DNA of 64,000 bases from a virus. The position numbers and the translations under genes were made by a program. The notes beneath the pieces were generated by a model that saw only the letters and a program-made list of their open reading frames with translations, did no database searches and was not told the DNA's origin. The first letter of the stretch is position 1, and each line of letters begins with the position of its first letter. Of the stretch, positions 31,944-63,685 are shown piece by piece. Location of the stretch: IMG/VR virus record IMGVR_UViG_3300031519_004866, one strand, 5' to 3'.

Positions 31944-32867
31944 TTAAGTTCCAATTGCATTACCAAATAAGTATACATGTACTCTAGCAGCTACATTATA
32001 ACCTTTCTGAAATGCCATTTTTGCAACATGCCCTGCGGTTGCGGTTTGTTCTTCTTCTCTAGCACCAACGGGCATTACCCAAATAGGAAAGTCAACATCT
32101 ACTTCACGAAATTGTGCTATAGCTGCCTCCATGTCATCCCACTCACGTTGTAAACTACCAACAACAAACTTTAATTGTCCTTTGCTAGATAATTTACGAT
32201 ACTGCTCAACTACTTCGGGTCTAATTGCTTTCTTAGCAAGTTCGCCTGATGTGCTAAACAGTTTAGGTGATACACTAAAGAATAATTCAATTTCTGTTTC
32301 TTGTTGCCAGAAGTTAATAAACTCTTGTGTAAGATTTTGTGTACCGTTAGTTTCAAATGTAATACTAGCGGGTAAATTATTTTGTGCTTTAAGCTCTCGC
32401 ATAATACCTATAAACGCTTTCTGACTTTGTGGCATCATAGGTTCGCCGCCTGTAACACAGAAGTGTTGCCTCTGTTGCGATACAGGATGTAAGAATAACC
32501 CTTCCGGGTTACTCTCTGTTTTTAAGATATCAATAATCTTATGTGCTAATGCCTTAGGAGTTTCTTGCCCCATTAAGTGTTTATATCGTTTAGCCCATGT
32601 GTAACTGCTGTCACAACCTTTATCCCAAACAGGTAAGTCTTCTACTTTATCAATTTTAGATAAATCAAAAGTTTCAAACGGAAGTTCGTATGTATCAGGA
32701 TTAGTTGGATCTAATTGTCCAAACCCGTTACATTGCAAGTTACATAAAAAGAATCTAATCCAAGCAGTAGGAACACCAGTGTATTGTCCTTCACCTTGAA
32801 TACTGTGAAAAATTTCACTGTAGTAATACTTCTTAGTATCTTCGGTAGTTGCGATTGTTTCATTCAT
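31944..32867 (-). CDS. queE: 7-carboxy-7-deazaguanine synthase (QueE-like radical SAM)
   Basis: YSEIFHSIQGEG..TG.PT..IRF..CNLQC...CD, VTGGEP, FETNGT, SVSPKL. The third Cys follows a ~35-aa insertion. Confidence 0.9.
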   Translation of the reverse strand: MNETIATTEDTKKYYYSEIFHSIQGEGQYTGVPTAWIRFFLCNLQCNGFGQLDPTNPDTYELPFETFDLSKIDKVEDLPVWDKGCDSSYTWAKRYKHLMGQETPKALAHKIIDILKTESNPEGLFLHPVSQQRQHFCVTGGEPMMPQSQKAFIGIMRELKAQNNLPASITFETNGTQNLTQEFINFWQQETEIELFFSVSPKLFSTSGELAKKAIRPEVVEQYRKLSSKGQLKFVVGSLQREWDDMEAAIAQFREVDVDFPIWVMPVGAREEEQTATAGHVAKMAFQKGYNVAARVHVYLFGNAIGT

Positions 32868-32873
32868 ACTACT

Positions 32874-32903
32874 ATTATACCTTCTTTTCATCGGTGTTGT
32901 CAA
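32874..32903 (-). promoter_or_regulatory. sigma70-type promoter for queE (probably leaderless mRNA)
   Basis: TTGACA-18 nt-TATAAT, then 6 nt, then ATG 32867. Confidence 0.7.
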
Positions 32904-33063
32904 CCTTTTTCTTTATTGAAAAGGTGCCATTAAGATTGTCATCCCAAATAAGAGTATCACCAAAATCCCATCCCATTTGGCTGAGAAGATCCGGCGGAAA
33001 AGGTAAAATTACCTCTCCTGTCTCCGGGTCTTCTTCTACTTTAACTGTCCATTGCTTAGACAA
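32875..33063 (-). CDS. AbrB/MazE/SpoVT-like DNA-binding protein
   Basis: WTVKVEEDPETGEVILPFPPDLLSQMGWDFGDTLIW fits the swapped-hairpin pattern. Confidence 0.6.
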   Translation of the reverse strand: MSKQWTVKVEEDPETGEVILPFPPDLLSQMGWDFGDTLIWDDNLNGTFSIKKKVDNTDEKKV

Positions 33064-33262
33064 AATATTTGTCTAACATTTCTAGACGATCGTGTGCAGA
33101 AGCCATTTTATCTAGTTCTTTTTGGATCGTTTCGATAATATCCGAATGTTCTCCAATACCTACAACTTTCTGCATGTATACTTCTACATTTGTTTTGTGT
33201 AGTTCAATTTCAGCTTCAGCGTGTTTACGTGCTGCATTAATCATTTGCTGTCTCAATTCCAT
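33056..33262 (-). CDS. Small hypothetical protein
   Basis: MELRQQMINAARKHAEAEIE...GIGEHSDII; AAAGG RBS. Confidence 0.7.
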   Translation of the reverse strand: MELRQQMINAARKHAEAEIELHKTNVEVYMQKVVGIGEHSDIIETIQKELDKMASAHDRLEMLDKYFV

Positions 33263-33275
33263 ACCCTTTCCTTTT

Positions 33276-33650
33276 TTAGTATTGTTGTTTTGACGGAATG
33301 ACGCCTCGAACGCCGCCCTTAGGATCTTCCGTATCACCGTCTCTACGAAAGATTAAATGTACATGCGGATACATAACAGTTTGTCCTGCACTCTCACCTA
33401 CATTTAAACCAATATTGTAACCTGTGATATTAGTCTTATCACTGATTACGTTATCGTACCCCATAGTAACAGCAAAGTTAAAACATTTCATAATGCCTTC
33501 ACTGTCTGCTGTTTTAGGTACAATTAATGTGTGACCTTCAGTAACCGGATACTTGTCACGAAACACTGTAAAATCTCTAGTGTCAATTTCAATGTCATTC
33601 CAAGGAGCACGGCCTTCGCTTTTTGCTAACTCTAATGTATCAGCTTTCAT
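33276..33650 (-). CDS. HIT-family nucleotide hydrolase
   Basis: DKYPVTEGHTLIVPK, GYNIGLNVGESAGQTV, histidine triad variant PHVHLIFRR. Confidence 0.85.
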   Translation of the reverse strand: MKADTLELAKSEGRAPWNDIEIDTRDFTVFRDKYPVTEGHTLIVPKTADSEGIMKCFNFAVTMGYDNVISDKTNITGYNIGLNVGESAGQTVMYPHVHLIFRRDGDTEDPKGGVRGVIPSKQQY

Positions 33651-33873
33651 AACGACCTCGTCCAGTTTTTACTTTAAATTCTCTTGGACCCGGTGTAGTA
33701 AATTCCATACCAGCCATTCCGCCGACGTATGTTTTACCATTCCATCGCATGTGAATTTTATTTGTTGCAATATATACTTCAACAAACTCTTTAGATTTAA
33801 AATTGCCAACTTCTGCATCTACAACTTTGTCGTTGTGTGTGCATGTTACTGCGCATTGATCGTCATAACTCAT
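33640..33873 (-). CDS. Hypothetical protein
   Basis: 77 aa from ATG 33873, AGGAG RBS. Confidence 0.7.
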   Translation of the reverse strand: MSYDDQCAVTCTHNDKVVDAEVGNFKSKEFVEVYIATNKIHMRWNGKTYVGGMAGMEFTTPGPREFKVKTGRGRYES

Positions 33874-34418
33874 GTGTACTCTCCTACATTTTCCCAAGGA
33901 TAAACAAGCCAAACATCTTCTTCAAATTTGTTTATTTCGTGACATGTGTAACTAACAGGAACTGTAGCGTCACTTGCTAGATTATTAGTTAGGGTAGCAA
34001 ACCGAACGTTACTATACCAAACTTTCTCCCATCTCGGATCATCAGGCAAACAACTAGCAGGCCAGTCTTCCTTAATCCAATTGAAAGTAGCACCAGTATC
34101 GTTAATGTCGTCTACAATAAGGATTTTCTTTGCTGTAGTAGGACCACCAATATTTGGATCACTTGCGTATCCGTATGCATCTTCTGCCATCCATAAGTTG
34201 CTTTCGCTTTGACTGTTATCGTCACGTAGACTTACTTTAAGTGCTTCGCAACGTATGCCAGTCATGTTGCTAATAATAGTAGCAGGCACATTTCCGCCTC
34301 GTGTTAGACCTACAATGTAATCAGGCCGCCAACTGTCAGCGTACATCTGATTAACAATGCTTACACACATTTTTTCTACGTCAGCCCAGCTATAATAATG
34401 TTTCTTAATATCACCCAT
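33870..34418 (-). CDS. Purine (xanthine/hypoxanthine-guanine) phosphoribosyltransferase-like protein
   Basis: IVGLTRGG and PRPP-binding loop ILIVDDINDTGAT; C-terminal WLVYPWE as in Gpt. Confidence 0.85.
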   Translation of the reverse strand: MGDIKKHYYSWADVEKMCVSIVNQMYADSWRPDYIVGLTRGGNVPATIISNMTGIRCEALKVSLRDDNSQSESNLWMAEDAYGYASDPNIGGPTTAKKILIVDDINDTGATFNWIKEDWPASCLPDDPRWEKVWYSNVRFATLTNNLASDATVPVSYTCHEINKFEEDVWLVYPWENVGEYT

Positions 34419-34839
34419 GATTTAAATAATCCTCGTTGTGTATCCATTTACCATCTTTAACAAAACCCCATTCTTGAGCTTTCTTGCCCATATAAAAAAT
34501 GCTCCAGCATGGAATTTCGTTTCCGTCTGCGTCTTTAGCAAGTTCTAACCAATGCAAATCTTTTGCTGTTCTAAAACGTATACTACCAGGCCCACGCCAA
34601 AACTTACCTTCTGAAGTGTGTTCCCAATAGCCACCTTTAATAATTAATGCTCCCCAACTCCACGGATGATCGTGTAGTGTAGGTTCGTCACTTACTAGTA
34701 CTTTGTGCATAGTAATATTAAACGGAAAGTTTTTTCTGTCTTTTAAAAATAGATAGTATCTAATTAGATACGGAATTGTGTTATCTCTATCGTAGATAAT
34801 ACGCTCTCGTCCAATTAGTTTTAAAAACTTAAGAAACAT
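34411..34839 (-). CDS. Cupin-fold metalloprotein
   Basis: LHDHPW...GGYWEH...DLHWLEL gives an H-x-H...E...H metal set. Confidence 0.65.
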   Translation of the reverse strand: MFLKFLKLIGRERIIYDRDNTIPYLIRYYLFLKDRKNFPFNITMHKVLVSDEPTLHDHPWSWGALIIKGGYWEHTSEGKFWRGPGSIRFRTAKDLHWLELAKDADGNEIPCWSIFYMGKKAQEWGFVKDGKWIHNEDYLNHG

Positions 34840-35035
34840 CTGTTAGCCAATCCGTTTTAATATTTTTATATAACTCAACAACTCTGCAATTATATTCATC
34901 TTCGTTAACAGCAAGATCGTTCAGTTTTCTTTTCCACATTCCTTGAACACCTTCATCCAATTGAGGATTAGTGTCGAGTAATGTTTGAATAGATTTTGAT
35001 CTACGCAATTGTACTTGTTCGTTCCACGGTCCCAT
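34829..35035 (-). CDS. Hypothetical protein
   Basis: 68 aa with AAGGA RBS. Confidence 0.6.
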   Translation of the reverse strand: MGPWNEQVQLRRSKSIQTLLDTNPQLDEGVQGMWKRKLNDLAVNEDEYNCRVVELYKNIKTDWLTDVS

Positions 35036-35228
35036 GATTTAGATCCTTCCTGCTTAGTTTTAAACGGTTAATAGTCATTCCGTGCCTCTCAGTCATATCA
35101 ACTAACGGTATTCCTCGAAGATTGTACATAAACGCTTCAGCCGGTGTAAGTATCATACAGTCGTTAGCTGATGTTGGCGGAACAACGGAATAGACTCTTT
35201 TTTTGTGTAAATCTAATTTGTCTTGCAT
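35001..35228 (-). CDS. Hypothetical protein
   Basis: 75-aa ORF filling the operon. Confidence 0.5.
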   Translation of the reverse strand: MQDKLDLHKKRVYSVVPPTSANDCMILTPAEAFMYNLRGIPLVDMTERHGMTINRLKLSRKDLNHGTVERTSTIA

Positions 35229-35413
35229 AATGGCTTACTGGACGACCTATCGTTCCAGTCATCTTTATTTTGTGAATACTCACGAGTGTGAATTTGACGT
35301 ACTAGTAACCCGTTTATAATTTTATGGATTACTACTTCTTTCATTAGGACCCCGTCATCTAAATTCTCTTCAAGTGCTTTTGCAAATGGTCCGTCTTTAA
35401 CTTCAATTAGCAT
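35213..35413 (-). CDS. Hypothetical protein
   Basis: 66 aa from ATG 35413 (MLIEVKDG), GAGGAG upstream. Confidence 0.6.
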   Translation of the reverse strand: MLIEVKDGPFAKALEENLDDGVLMKEVVIHKIINGLLVRQIHTREYSQNKDDWNDRSSSKPLCKTN

Positions 35414-35628
35414 TAAACTATCTCCTCTAATATGCCAAGTGCCTCTGCAATTACAAAGCCTACTCCGGCGATTATAAATGGCGTACCCCAATATTCTAAG
35501 TAGTAGCCTCCGTATATCATTGACACTCCTGCCACAATGCGTACTGCACTTTTAACAAGGCTTACGTAAAAGTGTCCCATGCTTGGGTCTTTTGTTGCTG
35601 GCATAATTATTCTTTCTGGTATTGGCAT
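35413..35628 (-). CDS. Small membrane protein
   Basis: Two hydrophobic segments; AGGAGA RBS before ATG 35628. Confidence 0.65.
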   Translation of the reverse strand: MPIPERIIMPATKDPSMGHFYVSLVKSAVRIVAGVSMIYGGYYLEYWGTPFIIAGVGFVIAEALGILEEIV

Positions 35629-35636
35629 ACTATCTC

Positions 35637-36326
35637 CTATTTTCCACAAGCAAATTCTTGCTGTAGTTTAATGTTATCAAAAAATTCCTTCTTAGTGCCA
35701 GCGTCATCTTTAAACGCACCTTTTAAAACAGTTGTCTGTGTAAGACTGCTATTTGCCATAATGCCTCTGTTCTCACAACACCCGTGTGTTGCTTGGATGT
35801 AAACACCTACGTTAGTAGATCCAGTTGAACTCATAATCTCTCTAGCAATATCATTACATAGTTCTTCTTGTAATGTGCCACGTCTAGCACACCATTGTGC
35901 AATACGTGTATATTTGCTAAGTCCAATTAAAGTTTCTCCAGCAATAATTCCAATATATGCAACACCAGTTACGGGTTGATGATGATGTGAGCAAACACTT
36001 TTAAGCTCACTGCGTACAACTAGCATACCTTCGTATCCGTTATCTATGTGATTAGGAAATGCAGTTGCATTAGGCATAGGATCATATCGACCTGCCATTA
36101 ATTCATTTACATACATTTTTGCTAGGCGTTTACCAGTATCCATACTGTTAGGATCTGTATAACGATCAATTACAAGACCGTCTAATACTGCTTCGAACTT
36201 AGGTGTAAGTTCTTCAATTAATAATTGTTTGTCGCCCTCTTGCAGGACTTCACTAATGTTGTCGCCAGCCCAAAATCTAACGCCTGCGTCTTGTAGTTTT
36301 GTTTTAATTTTTTCACTTATACTCAA
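35637..36326 (-). CDS. folE: GTP cyclohydrolase I
   Basis: Zn ligands in SVCSHH and HGCCENRG; GLSKYTRI...RRGTLQE; TTG start with GGAGA RBS. Confidence 0.95.
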   Translation of the reverse strand: MSISEKIKTKLQDAGVRFWAGDNISEVLQEGDKQLLIEELTPKFEAVLDGLVIDRYTDPNSMDTGKRLAKMYVNELMAGRYDPMPNATAFPNHIDNGYEGMLVVRSELKSVCSHHHQPVTGVAYIGIIAGETLIGLSKYTRIAQWCARRGTLQEELCNDIAREIMSSTGSTNVGVYIQATHGCCENRGIMANSSLTQTTVLKGAFKDDAGTKKEFFDNIKLQQEFACGK

Positions 36327-36369
36327 TTTTATTCTCCGATGTTTAGGCAGTGGATTGCCAACTTTTATA

Positions 36370-37419
36370 TTATTTTAACACATTTAATAGATCTGAGCAA
36401 CTAAAATATTGCTCATTTAGTACTTGTACCTGTTTATTTAGGCGAGGTAAGTACTTTTTATAATTTTCCATGTAATCTATAATTTGTGCAACCACTTGTT
36501 CTTTGTGTTCTTTGTATGCAGCAAATGACGTTGTCCAATCACTAGGATATTTAAACTCGTCTAATGCCATTTCAGTATAGCTTAAACGGTCCGGAACCAT
36601 AGGAATAGTGTCTACAAGCGCACCCTCATACCAACTAATGCCAAGTGTTTCTTGCAAATTAGCACTGAATACTAGTTTAGCTTCACCTAATAAGTTGTGG
36701 TATTCGTTCTTCGATAGTTGCTTTTCTTGACAAACAACAAATTCATATTGCGGAAGTGCTTCTCTAAGATCTTCAAATATGTCAACTTGCTTCTCAGGAG
36801 CAACACGATGCGGAAACAAAATAAGATCTCGTTTCGGCATACCTTTGTACATTGTTAATGTATTTGCCATATACTCAAATGGCCAACCAGTTCTAATTGC
36901 TTTGTCCATGTCAACACTGTAGTTGTCATTAAACGCTTCTAAAAACATGTCAATGTGAAAGTTACTTGCAAAAAAGTTATGATTATAACATTCATACATT
37001 GACATTTCAGCATGTCTTACCCACGGTTTGTCTCCGATCAGTCTGCCTAAAAAATCAGCAGGGTCATAACTACCAGCATGCCATAAGCCACCAATTCGAA
37101 TGTCCACGCCCAACAGTTCAGCCATGTAGCGCAACTGAATAACAGTTGGGTTCCACGCATCCGTATATAGGAAATAATCTCCATCTTTTACTTCTCCTTT
37201 ACAAAATGCTTCAGCAATAATTTCTAACTGCTTACTTTTGTAAACATTAGTTCCACCGAAGTTGAGGAACGCCCCAGGAGTTGTTGCCTGAGGCGTATCC
37301 CCACCGTTGACTACGGTTACTGTATGGCCATGTCCTCGCAACAGATTTGGAAACTGCGTTTTCCACTGCTTAGTGTAACGTGTTTCTACTGCTTCTAAGT
37401 CAACTAGCCATATGTTCAT
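36370..37419 (-). CDS. GT-B-fold glycosyltransferase (GT4 / Glycos_transf_1-like)
   Basis: ILFPHRVAPEKQ and the E-x7-E donor motif QETLGISWYE followed by PMVPDRLSYTEM. Confidence 0.75.
   Translation of the reverse strand: MNIWLVDLEAVETRYTKQWKTQFPNLLRGHGHTVTVVNGGDTPQATTPGAFLNFGGTNVYKSKQLEIIAEAFCKGEVKDGDYFLYTDAWNPTVIQLRYMAELLGVDIRIGGLWHAGSYDPADFLGRLIGDKPWVRHAEMSMYECYNHNFFASNFHIDMFLEAFNDNYSVDMDKAIRTGWPFEYMANTLTMYKGMPKRDLILFPHRVAPEKQVDIFEDLREALPQYEFVVCQEKQLSKNEYHNLLGEAKLVFSANLQETLGISWYEGALVDTIPMVPDRLSYTEMALDEFKYPSDWTTSFAAYKEHKEQVVAQIIDYMENYKKYLPRLNKQVQVLNEQYFSCSDLLNVLK
36372..36400 (-). promoter_or_regulatory. Possible sigma70 promoter for folE
   Basis: TTGCTC-17 nt-TAAAAT; short GGCA/TGCC hairpin in the leader. 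Confidence 0.45.
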
Positions 37420-37620
37420 TTAGTTTCTCCGTTTATTAAATTTCTTTTGGAATGACTTCTTATAGCCATGGCGGTTTTCAAACGCTCTAAAAGCTCTACT
37501 TTCTCGCTTATAAAGATCACGTTCATCAAATTTAAAACCGTTGAATCGACAAAATTCTTTGTACGCTTCGAGATCCGTAAAGATCTTAACCACGTCTGGC
37601 CGATCTGCAAAATAACCCAT
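37420..37620 (-). CDS. Small basic hypothetical protein
   Basis: 66 aa with AAGGAG RBS; abuts the GT start. Confidence 0.65.
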   Translation of the reverse strand: MGYFADRPDVVKIFTDLEAYKEFCRFNGFKFDERDLYKRESRAFRAFENRHGYKKSFQKKFNKRRN

Positions 37621-37632
37621 TGTAGGTCTCCT

Positions 37633-38094
37633 TTAATACTTTGCATATTCAATATGGGCACCGTTTTCTCCGTCTTCGGAGACATCGATGTGGACTTCAC
37701 GTCCGGGGTGTTTTGTTGTGATTTGTTCATACAAATCATCTGACATCATTTCACAAGATTTATAATCTACATTAAGTTCACCTTCATACAGTTTCTCAAG
37801 CCAACGCTTGAATTGAATAAACTCAATATCTCTGTCGTTATGTGTTACAGTGATACCTACTCTAAAATGAAAGATGTGTCTGTGGGGATAACCCAAAAAA
37901 CTAACATCGTATTCATCACCTGTTGCAAGACTAGGATCATCTAGTGCCGCAGGATACTTATGGATACCTTCTTTAGTGAAAGTAACCCAAATCATTCGCT
38001 TTGCATTTTGCATAGCATTTTCTTTATCGTTTGCCATATTTTCTTCTTTCATACGTCTTAACATATAGTTGTAATAAGATTCACGTTGTTGCAT
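37633..38094 (-). CDS. T-fold QueD paralogue (DpdL-like, predicted CDG decarboxylase type)
   Basis: EGIHKYP...FLGYPHRHIFHF: QueD-like His metal ligands with Leu in place of the QueD catalytic Cys (L-x3-HRH-x-F); SCEM and SEDGENGA T-fold tail. Confidence 0.65.
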   Translation of the reverse strand: MQQRESYYNYMLRRMKEENMANDKENAMQNAKRMIWVTFTKEGIHKYPAALDDPSLATGDEYDVSFLGYPHRHIFHFRVGITVTHNDRDIEFIQFKRWLEKLYEGELNVDYKSCEMMSDDLYEQITTKHPGREVHIDVSEDGENGAHIEYAKY

Positions 38095-38121
38095 TTAGTA
38101 TAACACCTTTCTTGATTGAAG

Positions 38122-38652
38122 TCAATCAATAAGTTTGTCTTTGTCATATTCACTCCAATGAGTAAATTTAGTATGATCCATAAGGTCACGAACCCTATGA
38201 CACCAAACACCTGGATTAGATGCCTTAAAGCCTTTGTCATCAATTTTTAGCATAGCGTTGTAACCAAGTTGATCAACATACGGCAATGGTACACGGATCT
38301 GCGGAATAAAGTAGATATTTTCTACTAATCCACTGTCCATAAAGTCTTCTACAGCAGCAATTGGAATATCTAAGCTACAAAAAATTTCGTCATTAACGAA
38401 CACTTCGATCATGTCTTCCCACTCTTCCCAGTCTGCAGCTACCCACGACTTTTGTGGATCAAAGCTATGATTAGCACCAAAAAAGATATGTTCACAGCCA
38501 TATGTGCTAAACATGTCACGAATGTCAGATACATCATGAATACCGGTAACGAACAATGTTTTCTTTCCAAATGCAGGAGTTTTTTCAACTTCTACACCTA
38601 CAAAAAATTTTGCTGTACTTGATACGTGACCATCTTCGTATGTACGTTCCAT
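38122..38652 (-). CDS. Uncharacterised protein in the deazaguanine locus
   Basis: 176 aa with AGGAGA RBS; motifs FFGANHSF and KIDDKGFKASNPGVWCH; no family recognised. Confidence 0.75.
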   Translation of the reverse strand: MERTYEDGHVSSTAKFFVGVEVEKTPAFGKKTLFVTGIHDVSDIRDMFSTYGCEHIFFGANHSFDPQKSWVAADWEEWEDMIEVFVNDEIFCSLDIPIAAVEDFMDSGLVENIYFIPQIRVPLPYVDQLGYNAMLKIDDKGFKASNPGVWCHRVRDLMDHTKFTHWSEYDKDKLID

Positions 38653-38653
38653 A

Positions 38654-40201
38654 TTATTCTCCTGTTAACTCAGTTTCTAATTTAGCTAGTTCGTCATCTT
38701 CTCTGTCATCAGTCCACGGAACAATTTCGTCACCTGCATCGTCAACTTCAACAAACAGCGAGTTAGCAATGTTTGTAACACCACCACGTAGTCTAGAACC
38801 TTCACAGTTCTTAAGGAACGCATCAGCTTCTTTAATCATTGCAAATGCTGCTTCTTTTGTAGGCTGTTCAAATAGTTCTTCAACAAAACGATCGAAGTAA
38901 AGAATATTACGTGGTACCCAGTCAGAGTACTCATCACTCTTATCTGCTTCTTTAACTTTTCTCCAATGTCTCCAGTCTGGACGTTCTTTTGCTAATTCAA
39001 TATCTGTTAAGTTGTTAGCACGTTGTACAGCAACAATATGTTGATACACGTTGTGTGACATCATTAGTGCATAACCAAAGCTATCCCAACTTGTTTTACC
39101 TTCTTTACCAATCTTGTTAAGCATACCTGGTGCATAATGACAAATGTCTGCAACACTTAAACGCCTACCAATTTCACTTTCAAACGGAAACGGAATGTCA
39201 TGTCTGCCAGCAAGTGCTTTATTATCCATTGCTTTGTCCATAATAACTGACCAACGCTTTGAAGTGTGTTGACTGTTAGTGTAAACAAGACCATGTGCAG
39301 TTGCAATAAACGGTGATGCACAATCAAAACTTACTGTAAAGTTAGGATTAATATGTTTACGTACTTGTCTTTGAATACTAGTTAAGTAACATGACCAATC
39401 AAGTTGTGCAGTACCTAAGAAGTGCATCCAGTCTTTACCTTCTAGCATACCGTCAAATTTCATTGTCATAAGTCTGCGTAGTGTAATAGGCATCTTGCAC
39501 ATATTAGCACCACCCATTGCCCAGCCTTCACAAGCCTTGTCACCCCAAATAGCAGGATCACTAAACTCTTTAACACCTTCGTACCACTTTTCAGCAGTGT
39601 CCCAGTCTGAGCCTTGTAGTACATTTAAAAACTTAGTTACGCCTAGTCTACGCTCTAACCAATACTTGTTATTAAAACGTGTTTTATCTAAGCAGTCTTG
39701 AAAGTCTTTAAGTCCTGTTTTAGGAGCATGAATATGATCACATGCCCAAGTCGGAACATCAAGTAGCATTGACCAATCTGCTGTAAGCTCTAGCCAATTA
39801 AGAATGTCATCTCTAGTCTTGTTTGCAGCAGGACCATCAAAGTTTAACCAATCAAACTTAAGAACACCTTTACCAACCTGATATCCACCCGAGTCACCTA
39901 AAATCATTGTTTTACCACGATCTCTATCTTGTACCATAGCATCTTGTACCATAGTCTTTTCAAGATTCAATTGTGCGTGACCTGCTGAATACAAACCATA
40001 CTTGTATGTAAAGTATCCTTGTTCTTCGTTTAAGAAGTTCATGCCTTCAATTCCGCGGTCAAAGCCCGCAGGAATTCTTTCTTTTGGAATAAATTCACCT
40101 AGTCGCTGTTTAGCAACGTAGGTACTATAGAAAGAACTAATAGCTGGCAAATACACAGCGTAGTCTTTCTGTAATGGTGATAAGTTGACTGGTTCTTTCA
40201 T
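38654..40201 (-). CDS. dpdA: DpdA-like DNA deazaguanine transglycosylase (TGT fold)
   Basis: TGT motifs in order: DSGGYQ, SMLLD, NVLQG, GWAMGG, HFLG, SFDCASP (nucleophile Asp position); sits with folE and queE. Confidence 0.8.
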   Translation of the reverse strand: MKEPVNLSPLQKDYAVYLPAISSFYSTYVAKQRLGEFIPKERIPAGFDRGIEGMNFLNEEQGYFTYKYGLYSAGHAQLNLEKTMVQDAMVQDRDRGKTMILGDSGGYQVGKGVLKFDWLNFDGPAANKTRDDILNWLELTADWSMLLDVPTWACDHIHAPKTGLKDFQDCLDKTRFNNKYWLERRLGVTKFLNVLQGSDWDTAEKWYEGVKEFSDPAIWGDKACEGWAMGGANMCKMPITLRRLMTMKFDGMLEGKDWMHFLGTAQLDWSCYLTSIQRQVRKHINPNFTVSFDCASPFIATAHGLVYTNSQHTSKRWSVIMDKAMDNKALAGRHDIPFPFESEIGRRLSVADICHYAPGMLNKIGKEGKTSWDSFGYALMMSHNVYQHIVAVQRANNLTDIELAKERPDWRHWRKVKEADKSDEYSDWVPRNILYFDRFVEELFEQPTKEAAFAMIKEADAFLKNCEGSRLRGGVTNIANSLFVEVDDAGDEIVPWTDDREDDELAKLETELTGE

Positions 40202-40209
40202 AATATTAT

Positions 40210-40947
40210 TTAGGCCGCCTGTGCTGGAATGATATATTTGTATGTTGCTAAACCACTGTCTAATTCGATCTGGATAGCACCTTCGTTACTAAGACTCATC
40301 TTAGTGTTGTTTACATCTGCAATTTTAAGAATTGCTAAGATACTTGCAACAGGCCAAGTCCAACCACGATCCAATGTACCTATAGTGTCAGTAGCAAACA
40401 CAAACTCGCCACCATGCGAACCTGCATCACCAAAGATAAACTTCAAATTGCCGTCCTCAGTTTTAGCTAAGAATGTTGGATGCTCACTATTAGCACCTGC
40501 TTGGAAGTTAAAACGTTGCACACCAGCAAGTGATGGAACAACTTCTACATCCCACTTAACACCGCGGAACTTAACAGTTTTCATCTTCTCATTAATAATT
40601 TCCATAAGCATAAACTTATAGTCGTTTTTAAAATCGCCTGTTGCGTTTTCAAATTTAATTCCTGTTGGAATAGTTTGGTCGTTACGCACACCAGTTGTTA
40701 CACTAATCTTAGCGTCAGTTTTATATTCACTACCATCTAGCAAATACTTTAACTTTTGAAGCTGTGGCATACCAAACGTGCCAAGCATGTCTGGATAAGG
40801 ATTGTGCGTCTTTGCTTCCATAATAACTGATCTATCATCAGCCATAGAAAACATTGTAGTTTCACTTTCTTCACCAGATACCTTGACAGTTGTCAAGAAT
40901 CCCAAGTTCTGTGTGTGATCTACGATATCTTTTAGTATGTCTTTCAT
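40210..40947 (-). CDS. DNA polymerase sliding clamp (gp45/PCNA-like)
   Basis: 245 aa, alternating beta/alpha pattern, C-terminal TYKYIIPAQ; directly downstream of the polymerase. A clamp loader is also in the window. Confidence 0.65.
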   Translation of the reverse strand: MKDILKDIVDHTQNLGFLTTVKVSGEESETTMFSMADDRSVIMEAKTHNPYPDMLGTFGMPQLQKLKYLLDGSEYKTDAKISVTTGVRNDQTIPTGIKFENATGDFKNDYKFMLMEIINEKMKTVKFRGVKWDVEVVPSLAGVQRFNFQAGANSEHPTFLAKTEDGNLKFIFGDAGSHGGEFVFATDTIGTLDRGWTWPVASILAILKIADVNNTKMSLSNEGAIQIELDSGLATYKYIIPAQAA

Positions 40948-41020: not shown

Positions 41021-43690
41021 CTACTCAAAGTCAAACAAGCTATTAAAGTTATTATCACTTCTAGTAGATTTAATATCCCAATCCAATACTCCAATAAGGT
41101 TGCCAAGTTTTTCGTCAATGACTGCATTTTCCATAGCCTCGCCATCAAATGGCAGTTCTTTAAACCATTGCGGTATTCTTAGTTCGTCTACAGGATATGC
41201 AATACTTGTATAGCCCATAGGATTCTGTTTAACTTTACAAACAATAACTTTAGCACCGTCAGTGATAGTAATAGAATACTTGTCATCATTCATACGCTTT
41301 AGCGTGTTCCAGTTAATACTTGCTCGAACATGTCCGGGCATGTTAGCTTTACCTTGCTTCTTTTCTTTAGCTTGGTATTCAGTAACTTTGTTTGCACGTT
41401 TAGGTGATCCTTTCTCCCAACCAGGTCTTGCTTTAAATTCTGTTCTAAATTCAGTAATGTAATCTAGTACATTTTGTTGTTCGGCACCTGCAAGTACACG
41501 AGTCAACACTTCATTTAAAAATTCCTGAATAATAACAGGAGTATCCGAACGTTTAAGATCTAAGCCCATTGCTTTAATCTTTCCGTCTTTGCCGTCTACA
41601 TCTGTACGTTTGCCTTCAATATCGTAATACAATACAGCATAACGCTTTTTAGTAATAAACAGACCTTTGGTTGCAACAATTTCTCTAGCTGCCGCAATAA
41701 CATCTGAACGACTCTTTGGACAATGGAATGCATCCATCATAAACTTAGGAAACGTTGTATTGCAGTTGTCGCCTATTGTGTCATACAAGTTCATAACACT
41801 TTCACGATCCCACGGAATATTACCTGCATCTATCTCATCTTTAAGTGTGCTATATGCACTAAAGTATGTAGAGTCAGTATCACCATATACAATTGACTTG
41901 CCAGTGTGATCATACTCGCCAGTGATAATTTCGTTAATCTTTGCAGCCATATGTTTAACAATAGCTCTGCCACTTAGTGTTGTTGATTGTCCAATACGGT
42001 TATCAAAGAATCTACAACCTGGATTAAGAATAGCACCATATAAACTGTTAAGCAAAATCTTTTTAACTAACTGCCTTTTAGCCCAGTATTCTTCTTCAAT
42101 TGGATTATTTGCAGAAATAGCATCACGCATCTTGCCTTGCATTTCTTTACGTTCTTTATACCAACGTTTTAGTAGTCCAGGAATGATACCTTCTTTTTCG
42201 TGTGTAAAGATAGTACCGTTAGCACTAAGCATCCATGGCTGGTTACTTTCGTAAATTAGATCGTATACCTGAGCAGCACTAAGAGTGTCTTCACCGCCGC
42301 CTTCTTCCCAATCAATAGTAAGTTGTCTACCAACTTCTTTAGCCATTACAGCTTCGTATTCTACAGAACCAAACTGACCTTCCCAAGCACTAGCAAAACT
42401 TTTACCTTTAGCCATCTCAGCCTCAATACGTGCTTTAGTACCATCTTGACGTAGTTGACCAACAATAGTTTCTGGACCCATGTTTAACGCACGAATCACA
42501 CTAGGATATAGTGAGTTCAAGTCAACACTACCAATCCACTCGTGAATACCTTTTTTAGGATATGCTACATAAGCACCAGCTGCTGGCTCGCTGCCTGGCT
42601 CTCTGCGAATTCTGTTTGGAACAATAAAGCCACGTCTGTGTGCTTCGTTAATAATGCCTTGTTCTGTAACAGCAACAGCACCCATAGTTGTTTGAATAAG
42701 AACTGTGTTTTCGTGTGCAATAGTATTTGCAAGATCAATAAACTTCAGTTTCTTATCTAACTTGTCTAGTAGTGCAGTATCTTGAATGTTATATTCAATA
42801 AACGTTCTAAAATTGTTGTTGTATAGTGCATCAAGTGAACCATCATAAACAGTTTTGTTCTCACCGATCTCTAACTCACCAATAGCATCTAGTCGATATG
42901 TATGGCGTTCTTCATAATTATATTTTCTATATAGTTCTAATGAGTCTACATGCACTCGTCCAATTAAATCATAAGTTACAGATGTTTTACCAAACTTCTC
43001 ATACTCACGCTTTTTAGGATATTGATTCCAAAGACACAACCGTTTTGTATCTTCTTTGCTTAATGTTTTAGTAATACGATTAACTGTGTACGGAATATCA
43101 AAGCCTTCGCTGTTCCATCCACTTAGTACATCAGCTTCTTGAATTACATCAAGAAATGCATCAAGCATTTCACTTTCTTTCTTAAACAGCATTACATTAG
43201 GAATGCCTTCGATAGCTTTCTCTGCTTCTTCCATGCTTAGTGTCTTAGGTGGAATTGCAAAACACACCATTGTTTCCATCCACTGCAAATACACAGAAAC
43301 AGATGTAATTGGCATAAACGCATCTTCTGGTGAAGCGTATCCACGCTCGGGATCAAAGTCAACCTCAATATCAAAAAACGCAACGTTTAGTTTAGGAGCG
43401 TCTTGATTGAGATAGTTATCTTCAAGCATTCTGTAAATTGGATTAATATCGCTTTCAAACAGTTTTTTGTTGCTATGGATAGCAAGTTCTTTGCGAAGCT
43501 CTTTGATGTTTTTACAAGTTACCCTTGATAGCGGTTGTCCATATATACTCTGGAACTTACCTCTAGGGTCTGCGTAATAAAAAATATGTCTTGGGTTGTA
43601 TTCTCGGTAATGTCTATTACCTTTTGCATCACGTTCAACAACGTTAATAACGTCCTGATCGCGATTATAGAAAGCGTCTACGTAACTCAT
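41021..43690 (-). CDS. Family B DNA polymerase with 3'-5' exonuclease (T4 gp43-like)
   Basis: ExoI FDIEVD, ExoII GWNSEGFD, ExoIII YNIQD; Pol motifs DLNSLYPS, KILLNSLYG, YGDTDS; C-terminal clamp-binding-like NSLFDF. Confidence 0.97.
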   Translation of the reverse strand: MSYVDAFYNRDQDVINVVERDAKGNRHYREYNPRHIFYYADPRGKFQSIYGQPLSRVTCKNIKELRKELAIHSNKKLFESDINPIYRMLEDNYLNQDAPKLNVAFFDIEVDFDPERGYASPEDAFMPITSVSVYLQWMETMVCFAIPPKTLSMEEAEKAIEGIPNVMLFKKESEMLDAFLDVIQEADVLSGWNSEGFDIPYTVNRITKTLSKEDTKRLCLWNQYPKKREYEKFGKTSVTYDLIGRVHVDSLELYRKYNYEERHTYRLDAIGELEIGENKTVYDGSLDALYNNNFRTFIEYNIQDTALLDKLDKKLKFIDLANTIAHENTVLIQTTMGAVAVTEQGIINEAHRRGFIVPNRIRREPGSEPAAGAYVAYPKKGIHEWIGSVDLNSLYPSVIRALNMGPETIVGQLRQDGTKARIEAEMAKGKSFASAWEGQFGSVEYEAVMAKEVGRQLTIDWEEGGGEDTLSAAQVYDLIYESNQPWMLSANGTIFTHEKEGIIPGLLKRWYKERKEMQGKMRDAISANNPIEEEYWAKRQLVKKILLNSLYGAILNPGCRFFDNRIGQSTTLSGRAIVKHMAAKINEIITGEYDHTGKSIVYGDTDSTYFSAYSTLKDEIDAGNIPWDRESVMNLYDTIGDNCNTTFPKFMMDAFHCPKSRSDVIAAAREIVATKGLFITKKRYAVLYYDIEGKRTDVDGKDGKIKAMGLDLKRSDTPVIIQEFLNEVLTRVLAGAEQQNVLDYITEFRTEFKARPGWEKGSPKRANKVTEYQAKEKKQGKANMPGHVRASINWNTLKRMNDDKYSITITDGAKVIVCKVKQNPMGYTSIAYPVDELRIPQWFKELPFDGEAMENAVIDEKLGNLIGVLDWDIKSTRSDNNFNSLFDFE

Positions 43691-44034: not shown

Positions 44035-44063
44035 ATTATAGCATGATTAACGCCGGGTGTCAA
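44035..44063 (-). promoter_or_regulatory. sigma70-type promoter (probably leaderless mRNA)
   Basis: TTGACA-17 nt-TATAAT, 6 nt, ATG 44028. Confidence 0.8.
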
Positions 44064-63274: not shown

Positions 63275-63685
63275 TTAGAGATCGCCATCTTTTCTGTTTT
63301 CGCTATAATGTACATCAAACTCTCCGCCCGGATAACGAGCTTTTAGTTTGTTTACATTTTCAGCAATTACTTCGTTAGGGTCAATACTAAGAGCCCTGCA
63401 GCTATTAATCCAATACCAAATAATATCGCCAAGTTCTCGTTTAGCATGAAATATAGTTTCATCGTCAAGTGGTTTACCTTGGAAGATACATTTTTTAACA
63501 ATTTCTGCAAATTCGCCTCCTTCACTCGCCATTCCAATCGAGCCTGTTAGTAGTAGTGCCATGTTAACACCACTTTGGGTTTCTAGGCTATCTAGTGTTT
63601 TTGATAGTTCAGCAGTATTATTACTTGCTGTACTAGTTACTTCTTTTACAAATTCTTGATAGCGATTTAAGTCTACGTTGTTCAA
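63275..63685 (-). CDS. MazG-like nucleotide pyrophosphohydrolase
   Basis: GMASEGGEFAEIVKK...ELGDIIWY...N..KL..RYP; TTG start with AGGAGA RBS. Confidence 0.9.
   Translation of the reverse strand: MNNVDLNRYQEFVKEVTSTASNNTAELSKTLDSLETQSGVNMALLLTGSIGMASEGGEFAEIVKKCIFQGKPLDDETIFHAKRELGDIIWYWINSCRALSIDPNEVIAENVNKLKARYPGGEFDVHYSENRKDGDL

Follow-up and report, generated by a model that had tools for sequence, protein, structure and literature searches.

A putative DpdL-type deazaguanine DNA-modification locus with a conserved glycosyltransferase in a large marine phage

Introduction

Which base is made by a phage whose genes for 7-deazaguanine DNA modification lie next to the gene of a glycosyltransferase (GT)? 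The question is raised by a 64,000-nucleotide (nt) fragment of a large uncultured marine phage (IMG/VR record IMGVR_UViG_3300031519_004866; the whole fragment is called the window below). Its minus strand carries a block of genes for a 515-residue protein with the fold of tRNA-guanine transglycosylases (TGT), a 176-residue orphan protein, the QueD paralogue DpdL, a GT, FolE, and a QueE-like enzyme. We conclude that the locus is very probably a DpdL-type deazaguanine DNA-modification system, judged from its genes and their predicted folds. On sequence grounds, it is a variant of that type that includes a GT, and its product may plausibly be a sugar-decorated deazaguanine.

An earlier note on this stretch had proposed a locus for 7-deazaguanine DNA modification that centers on a TGT-fold enzyme, with an atypical gene set and with a product beyond the known 7-deazaguanine bases. 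The locus itself is borne out by the fold and catalytic motifs of the transglycosylase-like protein and by the presence of DpdL, FolE, and QueE. The other two parts of the proposal have to be revised, the first substantially and the second in part.

Precursor genes of the DpdL type

DpdL is defined by a change of the QueD motif CxxxHGH to LxxxHRHxF, and has been proposed to decarboxylate 7-carboxy-7-deazaguanine (CDG) to 7-deazaguanine (Cui, Hutinet et al., Nucleic Acids Res 2023, PMC10516641). The 153-residue protein of the window reads LGYPHRHIF, which is the DpdL signature, and the motif is kept in 66 of the 67 homologues from the same clade. The protein is 53% identical (E 3e-32) to the DpdL-like open reading frame (ORF) ASD50405 of Acidovorax phage ACP17, which adjoins queE, and 32% identical (E 1e-10) to gp040 (CGPG_00067) of Cellulophaga phage phiST. 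Because the gene that the earlier note described as an HRH-type T-fold gene is DpdL, the core of the locus belongs to a type of system already published and is not an atypical pathway. The known product of that system in phiST, 2'-deoxy-7-deazaguanosine (dDG), was already among the bases that the note had listed.

The genomic context is also that of DpdL, with a DpdA-like protein, FolE, and QueE all encoded in the window. Canonical QueD (PTPS family, CxxxHGH) was not found there by tblastn with the QueD proteins of three relatives, ACP17, and phiST, nor did tblastn find QueC, QueF, or a DpdA3-type gene in the window. Five long contigs of relatives, 28 to 65% complete, were reached via related loci. 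In three of the five, a PTPS/QueD protein that exceeds the Pfam cut-off and carries CxxxHGH or CxxxHGY is encoded about 40 kb from the cluster. That QueD is missing is thus probably an effect of the window edge. QueC and QueF are found in none of the five contigs; their absence, as the note had reported it for the window, stands and fits the DpdL branch.

The QueE-like enzyme has a weak match to Escherichia coli QueE (6nhl, 9e-4). Its cluster motif, C-x3-C-x34-38-C-D, has an unusual spacing that recurs in 32 of 33 clade homologues, with an insertion between the second and third cysteines. The insertion of E. coli QueE lies between the first and second. The TTG start of the gene in the ORF list (32903) coincides with the -35 box of a TTGACA-18-TATAAT promoter, and the likely true start is the first ATG (32867). 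With only 6 nt between the -10 box and this ATG, and no Shine-Dalgarno sequence, QueE may be read from an mRNA that is leaderless or nearly so.

A transglycosylase-fold protein and its conserved partner

The 515-residue protein has no match in Pfam, PHROG, or NCBIfam, and 862 relatives were found among 1.8 billion cluster representatives. Its AlphaFold2 (AF2) model is of high quality (predicted local distance difference test [pLDDT] 91.4) and has the (beta/alpha)8 fold of TGT. In a Foldseek search of solved structures, all top matches were tRNA-guanine transglycosylases (Zymomonas mobilis TGT, E 3e-8, probability 1.0), and VIA-align superimposed the model on TGT with Z 18.5 and a root-mean-square deviation of 4.5 across 304 aligned residues. 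The catalytic motifs are retained. Both GDSGG(Y/F)Q, with D103, and S(F/Y)D, with D293, are invariant in an alignment of 61 homologues (the window protein reads GDSGGYQ and SFDC). The hidden Markov model (HMM) of the family aligns D103, D148, Q196, and the GG pair with D102, D156, Q203, and G229-G230 of the Z. mobilis enzyme; the equivalence of D293 with Z. mobilis D280 was drawn by motif (FDC) only.

The resemblance to the TGTs of Z. mobilis and Thermotoga maritima thus extends over the TIM barrel, the DSGG(Y/F)Q and FDC aspartates, and the equivalents of D156, Q203, and GG, whereas sequence identity is 15%, the phage protein is about 130 residues longer, the zinc motif CxCxxC...H is not found in its sequence after D293, and its substrate would be DNA and not tRNA. 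Phage proteins provide a second line of comparison. Profile alignment (hhalign) of the family with the TGT-like ORF ASD50403 of ACP17, which adjoins dpdL, gave a probability of 96.8; with DpdA3 of phiST (CGPG_00065/gp042), a subfamily represented also by CP220, the result was marginal (probability 70.7, E 3.8e-5, 83 columns). By structure, the match of the model to phiST DpdA3 in BFVD is likewise marginal (Foldseek, E 4.9e-4); annotated phage transglycosylases are also among its matches to viral models. No second TGT-family gene was found in the five long contigs of relatives. Fold, motifs, and gene context together indicate that this protein is probably the base-inserting enzyme.

A member of the same family occurs in a different setting. 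In Vibrio phage 2.275.O (L002, 9914-19299), a 596-residue TGT-like protein is encoded beside QueF, a YhhQ-type transporter, QueC, a Gat-like amidohydrolase, FolE, and QueE, in a cluster in which neither DpdL nor a GT was found. Because this set includes QueC, QueF, and Gat and no DpdL, the family is not tied to one deazaguanine derivative and also serves preQ-type pathways. The 370-residue gene that follows the TGT-like gene in this phage was considered as a relative of the GT and proved unrelated.

The gene of the 176-residue protein lies immediately downstream of the TGT-like gene in 73 of the 80 related loci. Its family has no match in Pfam, PHROG, or NCBIfam, and none to PDB sequences, whether searched singly or as a profile; no relation to the QueE of the window was found, and a structure search of the Atlas returned only low-confidence, barrel-like look-alikes. 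Many polar residues are invariant in the family. A homologue directly precedes ASD50403 in ACP17 (HMM, 8.8e-25), and PA5oct-like phages also encode one, which in the Pseudomonas jumbo phage PA5oct (Wroclawvirus) itself lies about 28 kb from the cluster; EST35_0320 of PA5oct, considered first as the homologue, was rejected in favor of the distant gene. In one contig (L051, 6975-9008), the TGT-like and 176-residue genes form a single in-frame ORF of 677 residues that lacks the first ~15 residues of the smaller protein. This fusion could be natural or an assembly error.

The 176-residue domain is also contained in proteins of 309 to 351 residues from other large phage contigs (P0271 to P0280). 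Two of these (P0275 and P0280) continue after the domain in a low-complexity acidic tail with a Lys-rich end, which may contact DNA.

A glycosyltransferase beside DpdL

The AF2 model of the 349-residue GT (pLDDT 82.8) has the two-Rossmann GT-B fold. Its top Foldseek matches are all GT-B enzymes, namely, glycogen synthase, BshA, MshA, PimA, and tetrahydrobiopterin (BH4) glucosyltransferase (E 1.7e-9 to 1e-6). With the retaining GT4 enzymes BshA, MshA, and PimA it shares the fold, the EX7E motif, and the R...K phosphate-binding motif, although identity to them is 12 to 14% and the protein falls below the Pfam cut-off. Within the GT family, E257-x7-E265 and H204-R205...K210 are invariant, and each of the 50 clade homologues examined carries QE-x7-E. 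Judging by this conservation and by gene order, the GT4 enzyme, its catalytic motifs intact, and the orphan 176-residue partner are integral to the module.

Of 28 phage records with DpdL, 17 have the GT beside DpdL or DpdA. They comprise eleven PA5oct-like phages, Phosso of Sinorhizobium, ACP17 (one phage in two records), X1 and BUDD of Xanthomonas, and Burkholderia phage BCSR5. The profile of the 515-residue family misses the DpdA of X1 and BCSR5, so the GT accompanies at least two types of DpdA and therefore tracks DpdL and not one DpdA subfamily. No GT accompanies DpdL in phiST-like phages, RHph_I1_18, Ahp1, Bakedbeans, D479, BUCT-ZZ01, and MA9V-3. The earlier note had named, as a check on its own proposal, the co-occurrence of the GT, the 176-residue gene, dpdA, and the HRH T-fold gene; across phages, this association was confirmed.

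Some of the most distant members of the marine clade (L080 to L082) seemed at first to have no GT. In L081 (2828-4997), the slot is occupied by a divergent GT, recognized by hhalign (probability 98, E 1.5e-13) and by a Pfam match to Glycos_transf_1 (1.1e-4) that, with 22.3 bits, stays under the cut-off of 26.4 bits; beside it, an NAD-dependent nucleoside diphosphate (NDP)-sugar epimerase/dehydratase is encoded (Pfam 3.9e-45). Together, these two genes replace the stretch from GT through FolE, cupin, phosphoribosyltransferase (PRTase), and HIT between the 66-residue ORF and QueE. The replacement was read in L081 and is presumed for L080 and L082.

Two of the cultured phages have further genes in the cluster. 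A PAPS-reductase-like PP-loop protein is encoded in the clusters of X1 (L089, 5843-8612; Pfam 1e-13) and BCSR5 (L090, 11306-14246). Just upstream of the GT in BCSR5 there is a weak match to a PIG-L/LmbE-like deacetylase (4.7e-5, below cut-off). The pair of deacetylase and GT recalls the BshA/BshB and MshA/MshB pairs, an analogy that hints at a decoration derived from N-acetylglucosamine.

Gene order in related and cultured phages

The block is not a chance arrangement, for one gene order is conserved across 80 related IMG/VR loci: polB, the 245-residue gene, the TGT-like gene, the 176-residue gene, DpdL, the 66-residue ORF, the GT, and FolE, followed at intervals by cupin, PRTase, and HIT, then QueE and an exonuclease. 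Best conserved within the module is the TGT-like gene, which all 80 loci carry. The 66-residue ORF, wherever tblastn detected it (57 of 80), always lies between DpdL and the GT, and the cupin-like gene is present in 34 of the loci. Megablast of the whole locus against 50,697 phage records gave no match.

Two cultured phages share most of the module. ACP17 (QueD, FolE, ASD50402-ASD50406) has, in nearly the same order as the window, the 176-residue homologue, the TGT-like ORF, a GT (38% identity), the DpdL-like ORF (53%), and QueE; it differs in being a T4-like phage of 156 kb, in having QueD inside the cluster, and in having no cupin, PRTase, or HIT there. PA5oct preserves the order PolB, 245-residue protein, TGT-like protein (41.6% identity), GT (44%), DpdL (59%), QueE, and RNaseH, whereas FolE, cupin, PRTase, and HIT are not in its cluster and its host is Pseudomonas. 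PA5oct DNA is resistant to five restriction enzymes and open to attack by modification-dependent END nucleases, and it is inferred to carry a modified guanine (PMC12191111). The dDG system of phiST is a further parallel: like the window, it combines FolE, QueE, QueD, and DpdL (QueD of the window's genome being presumed from relatives) with a TGT-fold transglycosylase next to a DNA polymerase and has neither QueC nor QueF. Unlike the window, it has a short DpdA3 (259 residues), no GT-B enzyme, and no 176-residue partner, and instead encodes MazG and a small ATPase.

Cupin, PRTase, and HIT have no counterpart in the ACP17 and PA5oct clusters and are missing from the distant clade members, so they are accessory genes of the marine clade only. 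Of the extra genes named in the earlier note, the GT and the 176-residue gene are conserved with the module, and these three are not.

Proposed pathway and competing explanations

From fold, motifs, homology, and synteny, on which every step rests, the following pathway can be proposed. FolE would convert GTP to dihydroneopterin triphosphate, a canonical QueD encoded elsewhere in the genome would yield 6-carboxy-tetrahydropterin, and QueE would form CDG, from which DpdL would remove the carboxyl group to give 7-deazaguanine. After replication, the 515-residue enzyme would exchange guanine in DNA for 7-deazaguanine, probably together with the 176-residue partner. The GT4-type enzyme would add a sugar from an NDP-sugar to the deazapurine, either on DNA or as the free base, and the purine PRTase may recycle the displaced guanine. 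We consider an early-expressed module of the DpdL branch that modifies the phage's own DNA at guanine, sugar step included, to be the best explanation of the locus and assign it, as a whole, a probability of about 0.5. On the evidence of genes and models, a final base decorated beyond the eight known ones, by a sugar or in some other way, has a little less than an even chance, a sugar being the likeliest addition. More tentatively still, we propose that glycosylated 7-deazaguanine is present in the virion DNA of this clade and of the PA5oct-like phages, ACP17, Phosso, X1/BUDD, and BCSR5, made by the GT4-type enzyme with DpdL, a DpdA-type transglycosylase, and the 176-residue partner. The claim of a base outside the known list is kept here as plausible from the conserved GT and the orphan partner only.

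Several points weigh against this proposal. On 7-deazaguanine, no hydroxyl or amine offers itself as an obvious point of attachment for a sugar, in contrast to 5-hydroxymethylcytosine, whose hydroxyl accepts the sugar in the functional analogy offered by the T4 DNA glucosyltransferases. The case for a sugar in the GT-bearing phages is made from genes and not from chemistry. The GT, the TGT-like protein, and QueE all fall below curated Pfam or NCBIfam cut-offs: 6 of 28 GT family members match Glycos_transf_1, short of its cut-off (best E 0.0094); 3 of 61 members of the 515-residue family match the Pfam TGT family PF01702, also short of threshold (best E 0.0069); and several NCBIfam QueE models match the QueE-like protein below their cut-offs. 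The fusion of the TGT-like and 176-residue proteins was seen in one metagenome contig only, and a canonical QueD elsewhere in the window's own genome is presumed from its relatives. Furthermore, the DNA of phiST is 100% modified with dDG although the phage has no GT, and decarboxylation by DpdL is a proposed activity in the literature too (PMC10516641).

The main rival is that the locus is a plain dDG system of the kind proposed for phiST, in which case the GT would act elsewhere (on a protein, another base, or a host structure) or would have only a structural role beside DpdA. DpdL, FolE, QueE, and QueD without QueC are the published dDG gene set, dDG has no sugar acceptor, and DpdL is found without a GT in the phages listed above. 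Yet, across unrelated lineages of phages and with different types of DpdA, the GT keeps its place next to DpdL or DpdA, and it has retained its catalytic motifs; in distant relatives it has been exchanged, in the same slot, for another GT accompanied by an NDP-sugar enzyme. Moreover, DpdL and DpdA of ACP17 alone produced no dDG in E. coli, and the authors suggested that other enzymes may be needed (PMC10516641). We regard a plain dDG system as less likely than the proposed pathway and as the strongest of the alternatives.

Replacement of guanine before replication is improbable. In such a route, the PRTase would make a deazapurine nucleotide, to be converted to a deoxynucleoside triphosphate and incorporated by the phage polymerase, and the TGT-like protein would serve another role, for example, on tRNA. 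The position of a xanthine/guanine-type PRTase and a HIT nucleotide hydrolase in a cluster directly downstream of polB would suit it, and a complete exchange of G is more readily accounted for if it precedes replication. However, the clusters of ACP17 and PA5oct and those of the distant clade members keep the TGT-like protein, DpdL, GT, and QueE without PRTase and HIT, no kinase or dGTP-clearing enzyme was seen in the cluster, and it is the TGT-like gene that is never missing from the block. Least probable of all, by a wide distance from the plain dDG system, is that DNA is not modified and that FolE, the T-fold enzyme, and the GT4 enzyme produce a glycosylated pterin, much as cyanobacteria make biopterin glucoside. 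Tetrahydrobiopterin glucosyltransferases (9v0l, 9v0w, and 5ze7) are indeed among the structural matches of the GT, but they score no better than other GT4 enzymes; QueE and the TGT-fold enzyme, the most conserved genes of the block, would have no role; and PA5oct, with the same core, is reported to have a modified G in its DNA (PMC12191111).

Implications

A GT tied to DpdL and DpdA genes predicts, if the sugar-decorated base proposed here is real, a new class of hypermodified purine. All sugar-bearing phage DNA bases known to us are pyrimidines, and all eight 7-deazaguanine DNA bases that we are aware of carry small substituents. In the literature searched, we found no paper describing a glycosylated deazaguanine or a glycosylated purine in DNA, nor a role for this GT. 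Such a base would bear on the evasion of restriction, CRISPR, and modification-dependent nucleases, on artefacts in nanopore and other sequencing, and on the range of enzymes available as tools. Cultured phages offer a test of the prediction, namely, ACP17 and PA5oct, the latter a phage-therapy candidate whose DNA is reported to carry a modified G.

The GT family has more than 8,000 metagenome homologues, including some in Tara samples; the best 120 listed are 73 to 99% identical, and some lie on contigs of 220 to 340 kb. We therefore infer that the phage clade is abundant, and the modification may be common in ocean viromes.

Window, gene layout, and promoters

The minus strand carries genes from about 27.5 kb to the end of the window, and every ORF named in the earlier note was found on it at the position given there. 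The rows of Table 1 follow the order of transcription; four small ORFs lie between FolE and the cupin-like gene, and the two genes between HIT and QueE are small PHROG families. The perfect consensus promoter upstream of polB is likely the start of an early replication/modification transcript, to judge from its sequence and position.

Table 1. Genes and promoters of the modification block, with the evidence for each assignment
Feature	Coordinates	Strand	Evidence
Sigma70-type promoter, perfect TTGACA-17-TATAAT, upstream of polB	44035..44063	-	Consensus match only
Family B DNA polymerase (PolB)	41021..43690	-	Pfam DNA_pol_B 5.3e-35; exonuclease domain 2.9e-19
245-residue protein	40210..40947	-	phrog_12062 (function unknown) 4.6e-35
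515-residue TGT-fold protein, DpdA-like candidate DNA guanine transglycosylase	38654..40201	-	Fold and motifs
176-residue orphan, conserved partner of the TGT-like gene	38122..38652	-	Synteny
DpdL, 153 residues, T-fold QueD paralogue, proposed CDG decarboxylase	37633..38094	-	LGYPHRHIF signature
66-residue conserved small ORF	37420..37620	-	tblastn match in related loci
349-residue GT-B/GT4-like glycosyltransferase	36370..37419	-	Predicted fold and EX7E
GTP cyclohydrolase I (FolE)	35637..36326	-	Pfam 2.9e-37; NCBIfam FolE 4.7e-39
142-residue cupin-like protein	34411..34839	-	phrog_4786 "cysteine dioxygenase" 5.8e-32; weakly supported
Purine (xanthine/guanine-type) phosphoribosyltransferase	33870..34418	-	Pfam Pribosyltran 2e-9; NCBIfam xanthine PRTase 2.9e-12, below cut-off
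HIT-family (HinT-like) protein	33276..33650	-	Pfam HIT 2.8e-9; NCBIfam HinT 3.2e-11
ORF labeled "AbrB-like" in the earlier note	33056..33337	-	phrog_1811, function unknown
Sigma70-type promoter, perfect TTGACA-18-TATAAT, upstream of queE	32874..32903	-	Consensus match
QueE-like radical SAM enzyme (CDG synthase), ~307 residues from ATG 32867	31944..32867	-	phrog_2076 4.3e-52

Three labels given earlier to genes of the block find weak support or none. The cupin label depends on the "cysteine dioxygenase" annotation of the matching PHROG and is weakly supported; the same is true of the AbrB-like label, where the ORF exists and its PHROG has no assigned function. The 245-residue protein was called a clamp, a reading that finds no support, as BLASTP showed no similarity to the T4-type clamp. 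This protein is 37% identical to EST35_0314 of PA5oct, annotated as a virion "structural protein." Near the end of the window (63368-63517, minus strand), there is a weak tblastn match (E 0.013) to the MazG-like pyrophosphohydrolase of phiST.

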